Below are positions 8,473 to 64,000 of a stretch of 64,000 bases of DNA, one piece after another. The position numbers and the translations under genes are program-made. This stretch comes from an uncultured Candidatus Saccharibacteria bacterium (GTDB lineage: Bacteria > Patescibacteriota > Doudnabacteria > UBA920), in assembly GCA_964512925.1 (NCBI GenBank), contig CAZEKH010000005.1, forward strand, positions 4,325 to 68,324, written 5' to 3'. Each line of letters starts with the position of its first letter. The first letter of the stretch is position 1. The notes under the pieces are model-generated. The model ran no database searches, was not told where the DNA came from, and was given only the letters and a program-made list of their open reading frames with translations.

Positions 8473-8490
8473 AGTTTTTCAATATAGTTT

Positions 8491-8528
8491 CCCTCCCCAA
8501 GAGTTGGGGAGGGTCAAGGGAGAGGTTG
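8491..8528. repeat. GC-rich nested palindromic element (CCCTCCCCAAGAGTTGGGGAGGG + TCAAGGGAGAGGTTG)
   Basis: perfect 8-bp inner inverted repeat; same family as 5855, 31889, 32284, 59848. Confidence 0.7.
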
Positions 8529-24725: not shown

Positions 24726-26027
24726 ATGCCGTATTTTGAGATTTTGAAAAAAGCAGAACTCACCCCAGTCCTCTCTTTAGAAAATAGAGGGAGTGATATA
24801 TTCCCCCCCTCTTTAAGCAAAGAGGGCGAAGGGGGAGTTTTGGGAGCTAGGACGGGCATCATCCATACCGCGCACGGGGATATAAAGACCCCGGCGTTTT
24901 TGCCTATTGGCACCAAAGGCGCGGTAAAGGCTGTGACGGCGGAGGAGCTGAAGTTTTGGGGCGCGGACATCATCCTTGCCAATACCTACCACCTTTGGCA
25001 GCGTCCGGGCGACGCTCTCATATATAAAGCCGGGGGGCTGCATAAATTTATGAACTGGCAAGGGCCTATCTTTACTGACTCCGGGGGGTTTCAGGTTTTC
25101 TCGCTCGCAAAAATGAGAAAAGTTTTAGAATTGGGCGTGCTGTTTCAGTTTGATTTAGACGGCAGGCAGGAACTTTTGTCGCCGGAAAAATCCGTTGATA
25201 TCCAAGCTAACTTAGGCAGCGACATCTGCCTCATACTGGATGATTTTCCGGGATATCCTTGGACTTATGAGCGAAGCAAAGAATCCATTGAGCTTACAAA
25301 CCGTTGGGCTGAAAGGGCGATAAAGGAGCATAAGAGAATAGTGACTGATGGCGACCCCATTAACCCCGGCCAAAAGCTGTGGGGGATAGTTCAGGGCGCA
25401 TCTTTTCCGGACTTAAGGGAAATGTCGGCTAAAGCAATGGTTCAGTTTGGATTTGAAGGCTTTGCCATTGGCGGCGTGGCCGTGGGCGAACCTCACGAGG
25501 AGATGATGAAAGCTGTGGAGGTTACCATACCGCATTTACCGGAAAATGCCCCAAAACATCTTTTGGGCGTCGGAACGCCTTTTGACATTGTTCAGGCAGT
25601 AGCGCGTGGCTGCGATACTTTTGACTGCGTGATCCCGACTAGGGAAGCTAGGCATGGAAGACTCTATATAAATAACAAATATCAAATTTCAAATAACAAA
25701 GCAGACAACCTCTCCCTTTCTCCCTCCCCTCATGAGGGGAGGGAAGGGGTGGGGTTGCAGTTTGAAGGCTATAGTACCATCAATATCTTCAACGAAAAGT
25801 TTAAAGAAGATTTTTCCACCATAGACGATCAGTGCGATTGCTATTTGTGCCAGAACCATACCAAGTCTTACCTTAGACATTTGTTTCAAACTGGCGAGCC
25901 TTTGGCGACAAGGCTTGCAACTATGCACAACCTGAAATTTTATTTAAACTTAATGGCTAAAATCAGGAAATCCATCCAATATGATTATTTTGATGAGATG
26001 GTCTTAAACTACAAAGAAATTAAATAG
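24726..26027 (+). CDS. tgt: queuine tRNA-ribosyltransferase carrying two inserted palindromic elements
   Basis: 433 aa; 'LANTYHL', 'DSGGFQV', 'GFAIGG', Zn site CxCxxC..H (DDQCDCYLCQNH...HL). Confidence 0.85.
   Translation: MPYFEILKKAELTPVLSLENRGSDIFPPSLSKEGEGGVLGARTGIIHTAHGDIKTPAFLPIGTKGAVKAVTAEELKFWGADIILANTYHLWQRPGDALIYKAGGLHKFMNWQGPIFTDSGGFQVFSLAKMRKVLELGVLFQFDLDGRQELLSPEKSVDIQANLGSDICLILDDFPGYPWTYERSKESIELTNRWAERAIKEHKRIVTDGDPINPGQKLWGIVQGASFPDLREMSAKAMVQFGFEGFAIGGVAVGEPHEEMMKAVEVTIPHLPENAPKHLLGVGTPFDIVQAVARGCDTFDCVIPTREARHGRLYINNKYQISNNKADNLSLSPSPHEGREGVGLQFEGYSTINIFNEKFKEDFSTIDDQCDCYLCQNHTKSYLRHLFQTGEPLATRLATMHNLKFYLNLMAKIRKSIQYDYFDEMVLNYKEIK
24757..24840. repeat. nested palindromic element inside tgt codons ~12-39 (CCCCCCCTCTTTAAGCAAAGAGGGCGAAGGGGGAG with outer arms AACTCACCCC/GGGGGAGTT)
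   Basis: ~84 nt, multiple of 3, encodes LTPVLSLENRGSDIFPPSLSKEGEGGVL absent from Tgt orthologs as remembered. Confidence 0.65.
25706..25757. repeat. nested palindromic element inside tgt (CAACCTCTCCC..CCCTCCCCTCATGAGGGGAGGG..AGGGGTGGGGTTG)
   Basis: perfect 8-bp inner arms, ~11-bp outer arms; lies in a ~36-aa segment extra relative to E. coli Tgt. Confidence 0.65.
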
Positions 26028-31929: not shown

Positions 31930-32277
31930 ATGAAACGCAAGCCATATTTAGTACATAACGCAAAAAATTTAAGAACGCGTTCAACTATATGGGAAACAAA
32001 ACTTTGGCAATATTTGAGAGGCGGTAGATTTTTTGATTATAAATTTAAAAGACAAGTTGCTATAGAAAAGTATATCGTAGATTTTTGTTGCAATGAAAAA
32101 AAGTTGATCATTGAGTTGGATGGGAGTGGATATCAATTTTCAGAAAAAGATAAAATTCGTGATAAATTTTTTGAAGGGCTAGGTTATAAAATCTTACGTA
32201 TTTGGAATAATGATATTGACAATAATTTTGACGGGGTTCCATTAAGAATTAAACAAAATTTCGATGAAAAAAAATAA
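31930..32277 (+). CDS. DUF559/Vsr-like endonuclease-domain protein
   Basis: 115 aa; 'FKRQVAIEKYIVDFCC...LIIELDGSGY...RDKFFEGLGYKILRIWNND' matches the DUF559 restriction-endonuclease-like fold pattern. Confidence 0.6.
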   Translation: MKRKPYLVHNAKNLRTRSTIWETKLWQYLRGGRFFDYKFKRQVAIEKYIVDFCCNEKKLIIELDGSGYQFSEKDKIRDKFFEGLGYKILRIWNNDIDNNFDGVPLRIKQNFDEKK

Positions 32278-56988: not shown

Positions 56989-57005
56989 AAAGTTATTGAA
57001 AATTT

Positions 57006-57037
57006 TCCGCCAGAGGCGGATCCCGCCTTGCGGGAAA
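57006..57037. repeat. double hairpin TCCGCCAGAGGCGGA + TCCCGCCTTGCGGGA + A-run (GGATCCCGCYTTGCGGGAAAA motif, copy 1)
   Basis: motif recurs twice in tandem at 59762..59809. Confidence 0.5.
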
Positions 57038-57105
57038 AAATTAAAAATCAAAATGTAAAATTATTACTTTGTATAGATTAACATAGTTTGGTATAATGGT
57101 CAAGG

Positions 57106-57216
57106 TTTAGGCAATTGACCTAATTATTCTAATTACCCTAATTGACCTAAACAATCCCCAATGTTCAAAGTATTATTTGTTTAGAATAATTAGGTGAATT
57201 AGAAATTAGGAATTTA
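57106..57216. repeat. ~110-bp AT-rich inverted-repeat element (CTAATTATTCTAATT..CTAATTGACCTAAACAATCC..TTAGAATAATTAGG..AGAAATTAGG) in 5' leader of the M50 protease gene
   Basis: second copy at 62381..62476. Confidence 0.55.
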
Positions 57217-57251
57217 CAGTAAAAATTTTTTATAAAATCTAATATTTATAA

Positions 57252-57884
57252 ATGGATCTAATCATCACTTTCGCTATCCTTTTGTTTTCCGCCATCGTGC
57301 ATGAGGTCTCGCACGGGCTGATGGCTGAATATTTGGGCGACCCGACAGCCAGGCAGGAGGGCAGGATAACCCTAAACCCAATCTCCCACATAGACCCTTT
57401 TGGTAGCATAATTTTGCCCGCGCTTTTGTATTTTGGTTCCGCGGGATTTGCGCCTTCTCAGCGCGTTGTTTTTGGCTATGCCAAACCCGTGCCCGTGGAT
57501 ATGTACAGGCTTACAAGGTTTAAAAGCCGGCAGTGGGGGTTTGCTTTGGTCAGTTTTGCCGGACCTTTTTCAAACCTAGTGTTAGCTGTGTTTTTTGCTT
57601 TGCTTATAAAAATAGGACTGGTGAACGAAATTTCCGCCCCGATCTTAGTGTCCGCTATTGTTATAAACCTCTCTTTAGCTATTTTTAACCTCATCCCTAT
57701 ACCACCTTTGGATGGCAGTAAAATTCTACTGGCTTTTTTGCCCTATGAATCTTGGTATGTAAAGGCTTTGCAGTTTGAACGTTTCGGATTTATTTTAATA
57801 TATGTTTTCATTAGTAGTGGAATAATGGATCGCATCCTTTGGCCTGTGGTAGACGCGTTTTTCCGGTTTTTTGGACTAGGTTGA
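57252..57884 (+). CDS. site-2 protease family (M50) zinc metalloprotease
   Basis: 210 aa; 'HEVSHG' HExxH in TM1, 'LNPISHIDPFG', LDG motif. Confidence 0.7.
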   Translation: MDLIITFAILLFSAIVHEVSHGLMAEYLGDPTARQEGRITLNPISHIDPFGSIILPALLYFGSAGFAPSQRVVFGYAKPVPVDMYRLTRFKSRQWGFALVSFAGPFSNLVLAVFFALLIKIGLVNEISAPILVSAIVINLSLAIFNLIPIPPLDGSKILLAFLPYESWYVKALQFERFGFILIYVFISSGIMDRILWPVVDAFFRFFGLG

Positions 57885-58039
57885 CATTTTAAAGAAAAAA
57901 GTTATAATATAGGTAACTAAATACAGAAACCATTCACAGATCACAGATAGGTTCAGATAGCACAGATCAAAAAGATTTGTAAAATTTGCTCCAATTTGTG
58001 TATTTGTGAATAATAACCTTATTTAGTCGAGTTTTTGGG

Positions 58040-58105
58040 AATACCACCCCGCCCTGCGGGCACCCCTCCTATATTTAGGCGGGGAAAATCCGAAAGGTTT
58101 CCGGA
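58040..58105. repeat. hairpin cluster in rpsL leader (CCCGCCCTGCGGG, CCCCTCCTATATTTAGGCGGGG, ATCCGAAAGGTTTCCGGAT)
   Basis: CCCCTCCTAT(A)TTTAGG core identical to metG element at 36281. Confidence 0.45.
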
Positions 58106-58189
58106 TAGTACCAAAAAAGCGAAGTAGACAAGAACTGATTGTCGATCAGTTTTTATTGTGTCAATAGACTTAACATTTAAGGAAAAACT

Positions 58190-58603
58190 ATGCCAACAAT
58201 CAACCAGTTAGTCAGGCGAGGACGAAGCCCGCTTAAAGCCAAGAGAAAGTCTCCGGCTTTGCAGTTTCGTATGAACCTTTTAAAAAACAGGGAAGTGCCG
58301 ATGAAAACAGGAATTCCGTTTATGCGCGGAGTGTGCCTGAAAGTGTATACCACTACGCCAAAAAAGCCGAACTCGGCTTTGCGTAAAGTTGCCAAGGTCA
58401 AACTGACCAATGGAATGGAAGTTATCGCGTACATCCCAGGGGTTGGCCACAACCTCCAGGAACACTCAGTGGTAATGATCCGCGGCGGACGCGTTAAAGA
58501 TTTGCCTGGTGTCAGGTACCATATTGTTCGCGGAAAACTAGATACTCTCGGAGTCGACGGGAGAAAGAGATCAAGAAGCAAATACGGAACCAAAAGAAAG
58601 TAA
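58190..58603 (+). CDS. rpsL: 30S ribosomal protein S12 with ~15-aa insertion after the PAL motif
   Basis: 'PTINQLVR', '[16 protein letters not shown]', '[25 protein letters not shown]'. Confidence 0.9.
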
Positions 58604-58684
58604 ATCAGTAAAATCAGATATTAGTAAATCAGATCATTTTTTACTGATCTACTGATAAACTGACAAACTGATAACTAAAAACTT

Positions 58685-59269
58685 ATGCCAAGAAAATCAC
58701 GAAATTACGACAAACATGTGCCAGAACCGGATCCGAAATACGGGTCGGTTAAATATGCCAAGTTTATCAATTACATCATGGAGCGCGGAAAGAAAAATGT
58801 TGCGCGCAAGATTTTTTACGATGCTTTGGATATAGTGGAAGAGAAAGTTAAAGCTTTGCAGCCGCAGGGCGGGGCTAAAACAGGTGCCCCTGCAAAAGCC
58901 GGCGCAGATAAAACCGGAGAAAAACCGGCAAAAGAAGAAAAGACTGTGGCTTTGGACGGCCGCCAAGTTTTTGATATTGCTTTGAAGAATGTGGGCCCCT
59001 TGATGGAACTAAAAAGCCGCCGCGTAGGCGGAGCTAACTACCAGGTTCCTATGGAAGTTGTTGAACCAAGAAGAACAGTTCTCGCTATGCGCTGGATACT
59101 GGCTTCCTGCCGCGCCAAAAAAGGCGTGCCAATGGCAATGAGACTGGCTACTGAAATTGTGGATGCTTACCAGAAACAGGGAGCTTCCATCAAAAAGCGT
59201 GAAGATGTGCACCGTATGGCAGAAGCCAACAAAGCCTTTGCCCACTTTGCAAGGTTTAACCGCAGATAA
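58685..59269 (+). CDS. rpsG: 30S ribosomal protein S7 with ~32-aa Ala/Lys/Gly/Pro-rich insertion
   Basis: 'KSRRVGGANYQVP', 'ALAMRWI', 'KKREDVHRMAEANKAFAHF'. Confidence 0.9.
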   Translation: MPRKSRNYDKHVPEPDPKYGSVKYAKFINYIMERGKKNVARKIFYDALDIVEEKVKALQPQGGAKTGAPAKAGADKTGEKPAKEEKTVALDGRQVFDIALKNVGPLMELKSRRVGGANYQVPMEVVEPRRTVLAMRWILASCRAKKGVPMAMRLATEIVDAYQKQGASIKKREDVHRMAEANKAFAHFARFNRR

Positions 59270-59485
59270 ACTACAGAACTACGAATTTGGAAACACTACA
59301 GATACCTACAGAAGTAAAGGAAGTATTTAGATATAGTGTTCGAATTTACGAATAGGACGAATCTGCGAATGATTGCGAATAAGATTTTCTTGATGATACT
59401 TTGATGAAAAGTATGAAAAAATAATAAAAAAAGTCCCACACCCGTCCGTTGAGTGAAACGAGTGTGGGGGCAGGAAAAGTGGTTT

Positions 59486-59635
59486 CTATAGAAAATCTGC
59501 TAGATATCGTGCCACGCCATAGGATGCTAGTACCTTGAAGGTCCATACAGCGACGGTTATCGGTTTTTCCTTCCAGCAGACGACGGTTATTATCACACCG
59601 TAAAACAAACCTGACTGGATGTAGTTTGGGTCCAT
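59486..59635 (-). CDS. hypothetical 50-aa membrane peptide with AAGGAG SD
   Basis: internal Met of ORF 59486..59710; preceded by CTTTACAAAACTCTCTCTCTGATATTTTT box shared with gene 62104..62316. Confidence 0.35.
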   Translation of the reverse strand: MDPNYIQSGLFYGVIITVVCWKEKPITVAVWTFKVLASYGVARYLADFL

Positions 59636-59761
59636 TAAATACTCCTTTTCAGGAGTAAAAATATCAGAGAGAGAGTTTTGTAAAGGCTGGTAGGAAATTT
59701 TGAACAACAAATTTTAAATCAAATTTGAATTTCAAAATTCATTGAAAATTGTCCGGCAAAG

Positions 59762-59809
59762 TCGGATCCCGCTTTGCGGGAAAATCGGATCCCGCTTTGC
59801 GGGAAAAAT
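59762..59809. repeat. tandem 24-bp direct repeat (TCGGATCCCGCTTTGCGGGAAAA x2), each a TCCCGC/GCGGGA hairpin
   Basis: two adjacent identical units; related single unit at 57021..57037. Confidence 0.65.
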
Positions 59810-59847
59810 TGTAAAATTAAAAAATTGAAAATTAATTAAATACTTAT

Positions 59848-59884
59848 CAACCTCTCCCTGGCCCTCCCCAGGTCTTGGGGAGGG
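59848..59884. repeat. nested palindromic element (CAACCTCTCCCTGG + CCCTCCCCAGGTCTTGGGGAGGG) 18 nt upstream of fusA
   Basis: perfect 8-bp inner inverted repeat. Confidence 0.7.
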
Positions 59885-59902
59885 AAACTATAAAGCAAAT
59901 CT

Positions 59903-62026
59903 ATGGCACGCGAATATTCTATTGAAGTTACTAGAAATATTGGTATCATTGCGCACATTGATGCTGGTAAAACCACTACTACGGAAGGTGTGCTTTTTAA
60001 CACTGGGCAAAAACACAAGATCGGAGCGGTGCACGAAGGCGAAACCACGACTGACTGGATGGAGCAGGAAAAAGAGCGCGGTATAACCATCACCGCGGCT
60101 GCTATCACCTGTTACTGGACCCCTCAGCACGTAAAGCTGGCTCCGGAAACTAAATATAAGATCAACATCATTGACACTCCGGGTCACGTGGATTTTACCG
60201 TGGAAGTGGAACGCAGTTTACGAGTTTTGGACGGCGCAGTTACCGTGTTTGACGGAAAAATGGGCGTGGAGCCGCAATCTGAAACTGTGTGGAGGCAGGC
60301 TGACAAATACGGCGTGCCGCGCATTTGCTCTATCAACAAAATCAACCAAACCGGCGGGGACTTTTACAAGTCTTTGGATTCTATCCATAAACGACTGTCT
60401 CCCAATGCAATGCCAATACAAATCCCGGTTGGGTTTGAAAAAGACATTTGCGGCGTGGTGGATTTGATCCAGATGAAGTCTTACACCTATAAGGATTACA
60501 CGGATAAGCAATTTATAGTCGGCGAAATACCGGCAGATATGTTGGAAAAAGCAAAAGAATGGAGAAATAAACTGGTTGAAAAAGTGGTTGAGTACGACGA
60601 TGCGATGATGGAAAAGTATCTAAGCGGAGTTGAGCTGACTGAAAACGAGCTTTTAACCACCATTCGCAAAGCCACCCAGTCCGGCCAGTTTTTCCCGGTA
60701 ATCGGCGGCGACAACCGCGGTATCATCGTGCAGATGATGCTGGACGCGGTGGTAAACTTCCTTCCAAGCCCGGTAGACCGTGGCCCAGTGAAGGGCGTAA
60801 ATCCGGATACCGAAGCTGAAGAAATAAGAAAGCCGTCTGACGACGAGCCGTTTTCAGCTCTGGCTTTTAAAATCGCCACCGATCCTTTTGTGGGACGACT
60901 GGCTTTCTTCCGCGTATACTCCGGCCATTTGGAAGCTGGAAACTATATTTTGAACGCAACCACCGGCAACAAAGAGCGCGTGGGACGTATCGTGCGGATG
61001 CGCGCCAACGAAAGAGATGAAGTAAAAGAAGTTTTTGCCGGCGACATCTGCGCTTTAGTCGGACCTAAAGATACATTGACAAGCCACACTTTGTGCGACG
61101 AAAAGCATCCTATACTTTTGGGCGCTATCAAATTTGCTGATCCGGTTATCTCTATGTCTATTGAACCGAAGACCAAGGCTGACCAGGAAAAGATGGGTAT
61201 TGCGATGCAGAAGCTGGCGGAAGAAGATCCGACTTTTAAAGTCTCTACCAACGAAGAAACCCAGCAGACTATCATCGCGGGTATGGGCGAACTGCACCTA
61301 GAAATTTTAGTGGACAGGATGCGCCGCGAGTTTAAGGTGGAAGCCAATGTCGGGGAGCCGGAAGTGGCATATAAAGAAACTATCAAAAAGACCGCAGAAG
61401 CTGAAAGCAAATACATCCGCCAGTCTGGCGGACGCGGACAGTACGGCCACGTATACCTTCGCATTGAACCTCAGGAACGCGGCAAGGGGTATGAATTCTT
61501 GGACGAGATCGTGGGCGGTGTGATCCCGAAAGAATACATCAAGCCAATAGATAAAGGCATCCAGGAGTCTGCGGCCAACGGCGTTATTGCCGGATATCCT
61601 TTGGTTGACTTTAAGATCGCTTGTTATGACGGAAGCTACCACGAAGTTGACTCTTCGGAAATGGCTTTCAAAATCGCGGCGTCCAAGGGACTTCAGGAAG
61701 TTGCTAAGAGGGCAGACCCCATCCTTCTTGAGCCAATTATGAAAGTGGAAGTTATTACCCCGGAAGCCAATATGGGAGATGTTATAGGCGACCTAAACGC
61801 CAAACGCGCAAAAATAGACGAGATGACTGACAGAATGCATCTTAAAGTCATCAAAGCTCAGGTGCCTTTGGCTGAAATGTTCGGTTATGCTACAACCTTG
61901 AGAAGCATGACTCAGGGACAAGCTTCCTATACTATGGAATTTGACCACTACGAAGAAGTAGGAAAAAATATCACTGCCAAAATAGTAGAAAAGAGGCAGG
62001 GGATAAATGTGAGAAAGGGCATGTAA
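59903..62026 (+). CDS. fusA: elongation factor G
   Basis: 707 aa; 'AHIDAGKTT', 'DTPGHVDF', 'NKID' (as NKIN), domains II-V. Confidence 0.92.
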
Positions 62027-62103
62027 ATAGCAGGGGGTAGGGTTTAGGATGTATTAAAAAAACGGGCCAGGTAACTACCGGACCCGCGTTGGGAACGACA
62101 CCG

Positions 62104-62316
62104 TTATAATTCGATGTCATAGAGCACAATGGCATTTCGTGAACCAACCTGTCCGATATCACGCACAACCGTAGTTTGATCTAGCATTTTGGCCAATGCT
62201 TTGCGTGCGAGTTTGGGTGACTTGCCCGGTATTAAAGCTATTGTTGCTGTTGTACTTTTTCTTTTTCTTTGTTTTCTTTGTCCCACAGTTGTAAACAAGA
62301 AAATGTAAAGAGGCAT
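62104..62316 (-). CDS. hypothetical small basic protein antisense within the fusA-tuf spacer
   Basis: 70 aa; AAGGAGTTCGC-ATG SD; upstream CTTTACAAAACCCCTCTCTCTGATATTTTT box; T-run after hairpin downstream. Confidence 0.4.
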   Translation of the reverse strand: MPLYIFLFTTVGQRKQRKRKSTTATIALIPGKSPKLARKALAKMLDQTTVVRDIGQVGSRNAIVLYDIEL

Positions 62317-62380
62317 GCGAACTCCTTTTCTCGATCATTCTAAAAATATCAGAGAGAGGGGTTTTGTAAAGACTTTGTTG

Positions 62381-62476
62381 AATTATTCTAATTATTCTAA
62401 TTGACCTAAACAAATCCTAAAATTGGAGTTTAGAAATTATTTAGAATAATCAGAAATTAGGTCAATTAGAAATTTA
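62381..62476. repeat. ~95-bp AT-rich inverted-repeat element, copy 2 (CTAATTGACCTAAACAAATCC ... TTAGGTCAATTAG) ending 5 nt before the ATG at 62482
   Basis: terminal 13-bp inverted repeat; aligns with 57106..57216. Confidence 0.55.
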
Positions 62477-62481
62477 CTTTT

Positions 62482-62841
62482 ATGTCCTCACTTCAAGACA
62501 TCATCAAAATAGCTAAGACTGAAAAAGGGAAGTTTTTTGTGATGGATGAAAAGGGCGAGGCAAAACTAGTTATACTGCCTTTTGAGGAGTACCAAAAGCT
62601 GTTGTTAGGAAAGTTAAAAGAACAGGTGCAGGATGTGGAAAAGATCAACGAAGAGATAACCAAAGCTCAGATAGAAAGCGGACAGGTCAATGTGGAAAGG
62701 TATTTGGTTTCAAAGCCAAAGGTTCAAGAAAACTTTCGGGCGTTTACTCAGCCCAAAGTTGAAACTGCGGACTTGCGCGAGGAAGTCATAGACCCCAGTT
62801 TTGACTTCGAAGCCCCGAAAATGGACTTGGACAGTTTTTGA
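62482..62841 (+). CDS. hypothetical protein
   Basis: 119 aa acidic ORF. Confidence 0.4.
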   Translation: MSSLQDIIKIAKTEKGKFFVMDEKGEAKLVILPFEEYQKLLLGKLKEQVQDVEKINEEITKAQIESGQVNVERYLVSKPKVQENFRAFTQPKVETADLREEVIDPSFDFEAPKMDLDSF

Positions 62842-63053
62842 CAGAATGCGGAAAATATTTTAAAATTCATTTGTAAAAATTAATTAATTCTACTTTAAAA
62901 ATCTAAACGGATTTTGTTCCTGGATTCGTCCCGATGTACATCGGGATAAAAAAGAGATCCCCTTGGCACTGCTGCCCAATCGATAGGCGGTGGTGACTAG
63001 GGAATCTCGGACAGAGCCTGAAAAAGATTTTAAAATTAGACCAAAGGAAAAAA

Positions 63054-64000
63054 ATGGCAGACAAGTTTGATAGAAGCAAAGTGCACGTCAACGTCGGAAC
63101 CATCGGTCACGTTGACCACGGAAAAACCACTTTGACAGCCGCGATCACTTCCGTGCTCGCAAGAAAGTATTCCGACATTAAGACCAAAGCTTACGACCAG
63201 ATCGACAACGCTCCGGAAGAAAAAGCCCGCGGTATTACCATCAACACCGCTCACGTCGAGTACCACTCTGAAAAGAGACACTATGCCCACGTGGACTGTC
63301 CTGGTCACGCTGACTATATCAAGAACATGATCACCGGCGCCGCCCAGATGGACGGAGCTATCTTGGTTGTTTCAGCAACAGACGGACCAATGCCTCAGAC
63401 CCGCGAACACATCTTGCTCGCTCGTCAGGTGGGCGTGCCTTATATCGTGGTGTTTATGAACAAATGCGATATGGTGCAGGACAAAGAGCTTTTGGACTTG
63501 GTTGAGGAAGAAATCCGCGACCTTTTGACCAAATACGAATTCCCAGGCAAAGACACCCCGATCATCAGGGGATCTGCTTTGAAAGCTTTGGAAGGCGACA
63601 CTTCTGAAATGGGCGAAGGCGCTATTATGAAGCTGGTTGAAGCTTTGGATACTTTCATCCCGGATCCGGTTCGCGACACTGAAAAGCCATATTTGATGCC
63701 TATTGAAGACATCTTCTCCATAGAAGGACGCGGCACAGTGGTAACAGGAAGAATAGAACGCGGTACAGTCAATGTCGGCGATGAAATCGAAATCGTCGGT
63801 ATAAGGCCAACTTCCAAAACCGTAGTTACCGGTATTGAAATGTTTAACAAACAGTTAGACTCTGGTATGGCGGGGGACAACGCAGGAGTACTGCTTCGCG
63901 GCACTAAAAAAGAAGAAGTTGAGCGCGGCCAGGTTTTGGCCAAGCCAGGTTCTATCACCCCGCATACTGATTTTGAAGCTGAAATCTATGTTTTGACCAA
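63054..64000 (+). CDS. tuf: elongation factor Tu (3'-partial, runs off window end)
   Basis: '[32 protein letters not shown]', 'DCPGHADY', 'NKCD' G-motifs; no stop in frame before nt 64000. Confidence 0.92.

Follow-up and report, generated by a model that had tools for sequence, protein, structure and literature searches.

What are two small open reading frames (ORFs) doing on the minus strand in the spacers on either side of fusA, each behind the same short sequence box and each facing the str genes head-on? The question is raised by a 64-kb stretch of contig CAZEKH010000005.1 from an uncultured bacterium of the Patescibacteria (Candidate Phyla Radiation), referred to here as the window, in which rpsG and fusA are separated by 633 bp. 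Such a gap is unusual, because its median in 132 loci of other bacteria was approximately 65 bp and 109 of the 132 were below 200 bp; the expanded spacer noted in a preliminary description of this DNA was therefore confirmed. This spacer holds an ORF of 49 amino acids (ORF49), and the spacer downstream of fusA holds one of 70 amino acids (ORF70). With moderate confidence, we propose that ORF49 and ORF70 are self-contained genes for small proteins, equipped with a conserved promoter and inserted head-on in a hot spot that is shared by their clade.

Both ORFs are preceded by the box CTTTACAAAAC(C/T)nTGATATTTTT, the two copies of which are identical except for one substitution and one additional base, in agreement with the near identity reported in the preliminary description. 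The 17-nt core of the box occurs exactly twice in the 64 kb, with shuffled sequences expected to give 0.4 matches within three mismatches, and the full box, likewise present twice, was never matched in the shuffles. We read it as a sigma-70-type promoter composed of the -35 element TTTACA (a 5/6 match to TTGACA), a CT-repeat spacer and an extended -10 element. The latter is TGATATTTT in both copies and carries the A at position 2, the T at position 6 and the preceding TGn by which extended -10 elements are recognized; in the related genomes described below it takes the forms TGATATTCT, TGGTATTCT or TGTTATTTT. The two elements are 15 nt apart in copy 1 and 16 nt apart in copy 2, and 15, 19, 17 and 17 nt apart in the copies of the relatives L167 and L168. 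Extended -10 promoters tolerate -35 elements that are weak or mis-spaced. The alternative of a plus-strand element was rejected, as the box read in that direction offered neither a terminator nor a structure.

Downstream of each box, on the minus strand, follow a strong Shine-Dalgarno (SD) site, an ATG, an open frame and an intrinsic terminator, which together with the promoter-like box make each ORF a complete expression unit; one regulatory module is common to the two. The AAGGAG sites read from the letters in the preliminary description lie 6 nt (ORF49) and 5 nt (ORF70) before the ATG, within the 4-10 nt at which an AGGAGG-like motif marks an SD-led gene, and the terminators consist of a hairpin and a U-tract on the gene strand, as is typical of Rho-independent termination. 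In the 64 kb, an intergenic combination of a strong SD, an ATG and an open frame was found only at ORF49 and ORF70. As expected for minus-strand coding, both ORFs show reversed AT and GC skew (AT skew of ORF70, -0.28 to -0.35), and a codon model ranked the annotated frame of each as the best of six. ORF49 and ORF70 may thus be translated, as judged from these signals. In the ORF49 unit, the sequence ACTCCT at 59656-59651 can pair with the SD in a 5' hairpin (ACTCCTGAAAAGGAGT; 7 bp, -9.6 kcal/mol, z -3.2), which forms only if the anti-SD arm is transcribed and hence depends on the exact start site.

Several details of the preliminary description required adjustment. ORF49 was found where it had been placed, with 49 amino acids plus a stop codon instead of 50 amino acids. 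Its description as a membrane protein holds as far as hydrophobicity is concerned (maximum 15-residue Kyte-Doolittle value of 1.87; one long helix at pLDDT 84 in a single-sequence AF2 model), and on this basis a membrane location is conceivable. The corresponding model of ORF70 was unreliable (pLDDT 60), and neither model was usable for a fold search. ORF70, said to lie between fusA and tuf, does follow fusA but is separated from tuf by a further gene, ORF119. Finally, the two ORFs do occupy the opposite strand, as the term antisense genes inside the operon implied, but they are intergenic and their terminators precede rpsG and fusA. Because neither ORF overlaps any plus-strand coding sequence, the units would be antisense only to putative read-through from the upstream str gene.

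The expectation that the box would be conserved in relatives was borne out in two genomes, L167 (GCA_038203095.1) and L168 (ERZ12298642), each of which has two copies; those of L167 are minus-strand and follow the form CCTTTACAAAAC(TC)nTGATATTCT. Alignment of the six copies, including those of the window, gave 26 invariant columns, all confined to the box; neither the upstream nor the downstream flanks could be aligned, and the variation in spacer length stems from the CT tract. None of the six copies retains similarity beyond the limits of the box, which rules out the suggestion that the box is part of a longer plus-strand repeat. Third-codon identity of fusA between the window and L167 or L168 is only 0.43-0.45, near saturation. 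Since the box, including its CT spacer, was kept while synonymous sites approached saturation, it appears to be either under selection or recently transferred. All copies in L167 and L168 lie opposite to the str-gene strand in spacers of the interval that runs from the M50 peptidase gene to tuf, and the six copies head six unrelated SD-led ORFs. Relaxing the pattern to CTTTACA-N10-18-T[G/T]nTAnnnT yields 11 occurrences in seven genomes (190 kb of clade loci); each of the 11 is on the strand opposite to the str genes, and each has an SD and a start codon 11-96 nt further on. These patterns point to a clade-specific promoter under selective maintenance, with promoter activity and start site predicted from its elements.

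The SD sites of these units stand out from their surroundings. Among the relatives, a strong SD precedes 3 of 75 called plus-strand genes vs 18 of 21 minus-strand orphan mini-genes, and in the window roughly 1 of 60 long genes has one. In the window as in L167-L176, the leaders of housekeeping genes are A/T-rich, poor in G, built of repeated short words and almost always devoid of an SD. Several -10 boxes in the same genomes lie 7-10 nt before the ATG, an arrangement resembling that of leaderless transcripts. The contrast in SD use may be inflated, as gene callers favor small ORFs with an SD, but it is backed by the unbiased scan of the window itself, which returned only ORF49 and ORF70. Loss of the anti-SD at the 16S rRNA has been reported for some Parcubacteria (PMC9297842). 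Altogether, these signals suggest that two styles of translation initiation coexist in one locus, an SD-less one for housekeeping genes and an SD-led one for mini-genes.

What the preliminary description had missed is the wider pattern, namely that unrelated orphan mini-genes occupy the same spacers throughout the clade in genomes that are otherwise nearly free of SD sites. Minus-strand ORFs of about 45-135 amino acids are present in the M50-to-tuf spacers of L001, L034, L084, L167, L168 and L170-L176, most of them with an SD and a terminator. Comparison of 25 of their products, all against all, revealed no similarity, and 30 products searched against Pfam, PHROGs and PADLOC gave no match above threshold; the best, between ORF65 of L001 and LydA-holin, reached 18 bits where the cut-off is 28.4. 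The possibility that the ORFs in corresponding positions in L001, L084 and L034 are diverged homologues of ORF49 or ORF70 was discarded, as no similarity was detected. In some relatives the spacer is tight (L002, 198 bp; L169, 177 bp; L176, 31 bp), and the insertions have therefore been gained and lost. A metagenome scan with S7 recovered one close contig, which carried a different insert. In more distant Patescibacteria, expanded rpsG-fusA gaps hold other small plus-strand insertions, among them genes for GxxExxY, four-helix-bundle and VapB-like proteins, and plus-strand GxxExxY or four-helix-bundle genes (the latter of the 23S rRNA intervening-sequence protein family) also lie in str-region spacers at L002 6252-6623, L174 7739-8131, L031 3558-3950 and L152 1796-2158. 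The distribution of inserts suggests that str-region spacers are a general insertion hot spot across Patescibacteria. Seen in this way, the finding is more general than a pair of antisense genes: one conserved class of promoter would drive unrelated orphan mini-genes. Our searches of the literature turned up no account of such an arrangement.

In the proposed mechanism, the box would fire against the direction of the str genes from its extended -10 TGATATTYT, with start sites predicted some 7 nt downstream of TATTTT, close to 59650 and 62335. Each transcript would then pass the AAGGAG and the ATG, continue through the 49-amino-acid hydrophobic or the 70-amino-acid basic ORF, and end at the intrinsic terminator short of rpsG or fusA, giving monocistronic RNAs of approximately 225 and 280 nt. 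Two orphan small proteins would in this manner be made from one promoter type, and ORF49 and ORF70 are probably co-regulated, given the promoter type that they have in common. An effect on, or from, transcription of the str genes is conceivable. A bolder version, to which we assign a low probability, holds that the promoter is dedicated to fast-turnover, SD-translated orphan mini-proteins that represent a second, SD-dependent translation regime, that its (CT)n spacer may be phase-variable or sensitive to supercoiling, and that head-on placement couples expression inversely to ribosomal-gene transcription as a growth-state switch. The features of the locus, together with the boxes of the two relatives, are listed in Table 1.

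Table 1. Positions of the two minus-strand units, the putative promoter boxes and the surrounding features (window coordinates unless a relative is named)
Feature	Coordinates	Strand	Details
Box copy 1	59685-59657	-	CTTTACAAAACTCTCTCTCTGATATTTTT; C-TTTACA (-35) / AAAC(TC)4T spacer / TGATATTTT (extended -10) / T
SD of ORF49	59647-59642	-	AAGGAG, 6 nt before ATG
ORF49	59486-59635	-	49 aa + stop codon; hydrophobic orphan MDPNYIQSGLFYGVIITVVCWKEKPITVAVWTFKVLASYGVARYLADFL
Intrinsic terminator of ORF49	59425-59468	-	13-bp stem 59435-59468, then T7
Box copy 2	62371-62342	-	CTTTACAAAACCCCTCTCTCTGATATTTTT; TTTACA-16-TATTTT with TG
SD of ORF70	62327-62322	-	AAGGAG, 5 nt before ATG
ORF70	62104-62316	-	70 aa; basic orphan protein MPLYIFLFTTVGQRKQRKRKSTTATIALIPGKSPKLARKALAKMLDQTTVVRDIGQVGSRNAIVLYDIEL
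Intrinsic terminator of ORF70	62056-62086	-	stem ~62063-62086; CGGGUCCGG..CCUGGCCCG then U7
L167 box, rpsG-fusA spacer		-	before 59-aa ORF
L167 box, M50 peptidase gene-rpsL		-	before 53-aa ORF with two hydrophobic segments
L168 box, rpsG-fusA spacer			before 90-aa ORF
L168 box, upstream of rpsL			before 120-aa ORF
rpmB		-	start of local gene order
M50 peptidase gene	57252-57884		between rpmB and rpsL
rpsL	58190-58603		between M50 peptidase gene and rpsG
rpsG (S7)	58685-59269	+	context
rpsG-fusA spacer	59270-59902		633 bp
Word repeats after rpsG stop	59270-59400	+	ACTACAGA / TACGAAT / GCGAAT
Weak promoter candidate	59369-59402	+	TTGCGA-18-TACTTT, TG extension; looser search; 8/12 positions
Two-hairpin module	59735-59807		copy of rpmB leader (56989-57038), 86%; between box and fusA
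Hairpin before fusA	59852-59892	+	AACCTCTCCCTGGCCCTCCCCAGGTCTTGGGGAGGGAAACTATA; 10 nt before fusA ATG
fusA (EF-G)	59903-62026	+	context
fusA-ORF119 spacer	62027-62481		455 bp
Inverted-repeat module	62381-62477		TTCTAATTGACCTAA / TTAGGTCAATTAGAA; between ORF70 and ORF119
ORF119	62482-62841	+	119 aa; between fusA and tuf; clade-conserved
tuf	from 63056		downstream of ORF119

A number of observations weigh against the proposal that ORF49 and ORF70 are small-protein genes behind a conserved promoter. Both have low codon scores, ranking near the 5th percentile of segments from real genes, a level that 13-16% of shadow ORFs also reach; ORF49 was also left without a call by the gene caller behind the Logan assembly. 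Searches of a collection of 5.8 billion proteins returned nothing for ORF49 and only itself for ORF70. An exhaustive HMMER search of ORF70 against 1.84 billion representative proteins gave two weak matches to repeat proteins of 1262 and 1506 amino acids, which were dismissed as spurious because BLASTP did not reproduce them, and ORF70 thus appears to have no credible homologue in that set; neither ORF matched Pfam. Because neither has a homologue, purifying selection on the two ORFs cannot be demonstrated. As for the box, the spacers of 15 and 16 nt in the window fall under the 17-nt optimum, and a plain sigma-70 promoter does not explain a conserved CT spacer. Independently of how the proposal is judged, the sequence signals, their rarity, the conservation of the box, its tie to SD-led minus-strand ORFs and the absence of homologues are direct observations.

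The low coding scores leave some room for the box acting as an antisense promoter, the product of which is a regulatory RNA or transcription itself, with head-on firing that insulates or tunes the str genes and ORFs that are incidental or weakly selected. All that is conserved across genomes is the 30-bp box, its downstream ORFs being unrelated, and every copy lies head-on in a str-region spacer; the promoter and terminator scan also found no plus-strand terminator after rpsG or fusA, so that read-through would collide with the units. We nevertheless consider this alternative unlikely, as 11 of 11 promoters in these SD-poor genomes lead to an SD, a start codon and an ORF of 49-120 amino acids, neither SD nor open frame is needed by a function at the RNA level, and the terminators keep the transcripts within the spacer. 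An equally small chance is given to neutral or selfish cassettes of promoter, ORF and terminator that, in the manner of phage morons or mobile promoters, have settled in a permissive hot spot without any str role, the two copies in the window being a recent local duplication of the promoter. Reuse of promoters upstream of unrelated genes is documented (PMC3575422), the window reuses several other intergenic modules of 30-100 nt, and the GxxExxY, four-helix-bundle and VapB-like inserts of other Patescibacteria show that expanded rpsG-fusA gaps accept other small insertions. Such cassettes would, however, need selection or very recent transfer to account for 26 invariant columns next to near-saturated synonymous sites, and the strict association with one strand and with SD sites suggests function. 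Neither flanking repeats nor an integrase or transposase accompany the units, their products match no phage or defence family, and a scan of viral contigs with an 18-mer of the box produced four matches lacking a -35 context, consistent with chance.

A more specific alternative makes ORF49 a membrane peptide of the type I toxin kind, the mRNA of which is countered by read-through from rpsG or by a transcript from the weak plus-strand promoter candidate at 59369-59402. By its composition, the hydrophobic peptide of 49 amino acids resembles such toxins, which are small (less than about 60 amino acids) and hydrophobic; its 5' hairpin possibly pairs the SD, the promoter candidate is in convergent geometry, and small hydrophobic ORFs with two segments are found in the same spacer of L001 and L084 and in the M50-rpsL spacer of L167. 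No dedicated antisense small-RNA unit was found, however, and no Rfam family matched. The candidate lacks a terminator and agrees with the consensus at only 8 of 12 positions, and nothing comparable lies near ORF70; the standard scan found no plus-strand promoter inside either unit. The anti-SD arm would be left untranscribed if transcription starts at the usual distance, ORF70 and most mini-genes of the clade are not hydrophobic, and no family match was obtained, the LydA-holin match of the L001 ORF being the closest and below cut-off. We regard this alternative as very unlikely, and as less probable than either of the two preceding ones. Small-protein genes with a conserved promoter in an insertion hot spot remain our preferred explanation of both units.

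Apart from the two units, the spacers contain other repeated elements. The palindrome TCCCGCTTTGCGGGA occurs twice, 23 bp apart, at 59764-59807, as part of a module of 50 nt that was duplicated from the rpmB leader; that leader itself consists of the two-hairpin module with palindrome TCCCGCYTTGCGGGA, which is found twice (23 bp apart) in the rpsG-fusA spacer. Palindromes of the same ATCCCGC..GCGGGAT type recur in the str-region spacers of relatives (L001 near 3811, L167 near 8182 and L176 near 10028), and they may represent an operator. A 45-nt hairpin leader (AACCTCTCCCT..CCCTCCCCA..TGGGGAGGGAAACTATA) is nearly identical before fusA and before typA/bipA (8483-8525, minus strand), at equal distance to the ATG. 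This leader is one member of a dispersed CCCTCCCC/GGGGAGGG hairpin family, others of which lie near 25722, 31889, 32308, 32553, 33915, 49014, 49107 and 49810, copies of which flank a DUF559 gene (31930-32277). The hairpin was absent before fusA in 13 relatives and is therefore a lineage-specific insertion; its interpretation as a conserved EF-G/BipA leader was abandoned on account of this absence and of the dispersed, DUF559-linked family. The words ACAGATACCTACAGA, TACGAAT and TACGGAT that follow the rpsG stop recur in L002 (3803-3960), L003 (1260-1330) and upstream of fusA in L172, with the rest of the spacer unaligned. The inverted-repeat module TTCTAATTGACCTAA / TTAGGTCAATTAGAA, of about 100 nt, recurs before the M50 peptidase gene (57113-57220) at 73-88% identity.

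The neighbouring genes have features of their own. The scan assigned tuf its own promoters, and upstream of it lie two tandem look-alike promoters (62838-62866 and 63008-63036; TTGACA/CGGACA-17-TAAAAT) that are 79% identical over 28 nt; a related -10 block stands before fusA at 59791-59818. Plus-strand equivalents of ORF119 occur between fusA and tuf in L001 (6234-6605), L034 (2355-2732) and L084 (5472-5771), with 99-145 amino acids in the clade, a weak RelB/Phd-like N-terminus (Pfam E 0.003, under cut-off) and a conserved C-terminal motif, DLREEVIDPSF. The S7 protein of the window is 194 amino acids long, about 30 of which form an insertion with a high content of Ala, Lys, Gly and Pro (QPQGGAKTGAPAKAGADKTGEKPAKEEK); in some relatives S7 has 170-174 amino acids and lacks this insertion. 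Rfam covariance models gave no match at E <= 1 in 57500-64000, and in the whole window they returned four tRNAs only, with no rRNA.

EF-G of the closest public genomes is 81-84% identical to that of the window, and S7 identity reaches 77%; one relative, whose S7 is 70% identical, bears the label Candidatus Doudnabacteria. Three Logan contigs (runs SRR14271332 and SRR14271336) match the window at 99.95-100% identity and are therefore taken to come from the same organism.

If the units are expressed, uncultured Patescibacteria would possess a promoter type that selection keeps down to its spacer and that would entail a regulator or mechanism of switching not yet known, and a hot spot that repeatedly installs unrelated orphan small proteins amid highly expressed, conserved genes. 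The use of SD sites by mini-genes next to SD-less housekeeping genes would then bear on initiation in reduced genomes and on the performance of gene finders. Should expression be lacking, the conservation of the 30-bp block would still have to be explained. Either way, the ORF49 and ORF70 units provide concrete targets for metatranscriptomics and for metaproteomics of small proteins in bacteria of the Candidate Phyla Radiation.

Among known systems, phage morons are independent units of promoter, ORF and terminator inserted between the genes of a co-oriented cluster. The units described here likewise combine their own promoter, one small ORF and their own terminator between conserved neighbours, with cargo that varies by genome, but they reside in chromosomal housekeeping DNA, run against the surrounding genes and use one promoter type across cargos. 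Excludons, the long antisense transcripts of Listeria, are comparable in that transcribing the opposite strand inside a gene cluster could disturb the expression of neighbours, whereas the transcripts predicted here are short and terminate before the neighbouring coding sequences. Type I toxin-antitoxin systems with a convergent antisense RNA, such as TxpA/RatA and BsrG/SR4 of Bacillus, are resembled by the small, hydrophobic ORF49 with its strong SD, which a 5' hairpin may mask, and with the possible convergent plus-strand transcript; they differ in having a defined antitoxin RNA gene, for which no counterpart was identified. ORF70 and most mini-genes of the clade are not hydrophobic, and no sequence family was matched. 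Simple repeats between -35 and -10 underlie phase-variable promoters, as with the TA repeats of Haemophilus hif and the homopolymers of Neisseria porA and opc. The (CT)n tract occupies the same place and the spacer varies from 15 to 19 nt among the six box copies, but the tract is short, with 4-7 units, and the three Logan contigs (two runs) showed no difference from the window, each at the box copy that it covers, so that independent assemblies gave no length difference. A further parallel is provided by the putative mobile promoters and promoter reuse in prokaryotes described by Nijveen, Matus-Garcia and van Passel in 2012 (PMC3575422). In contrast to those, the block here is about 30 bp long, is restricted to one neighbourhood and one orientation and had no detectable association with mobile elements; what the two have in common is a highly similar promoter placed before non-homologous genes, both within and between genomes.

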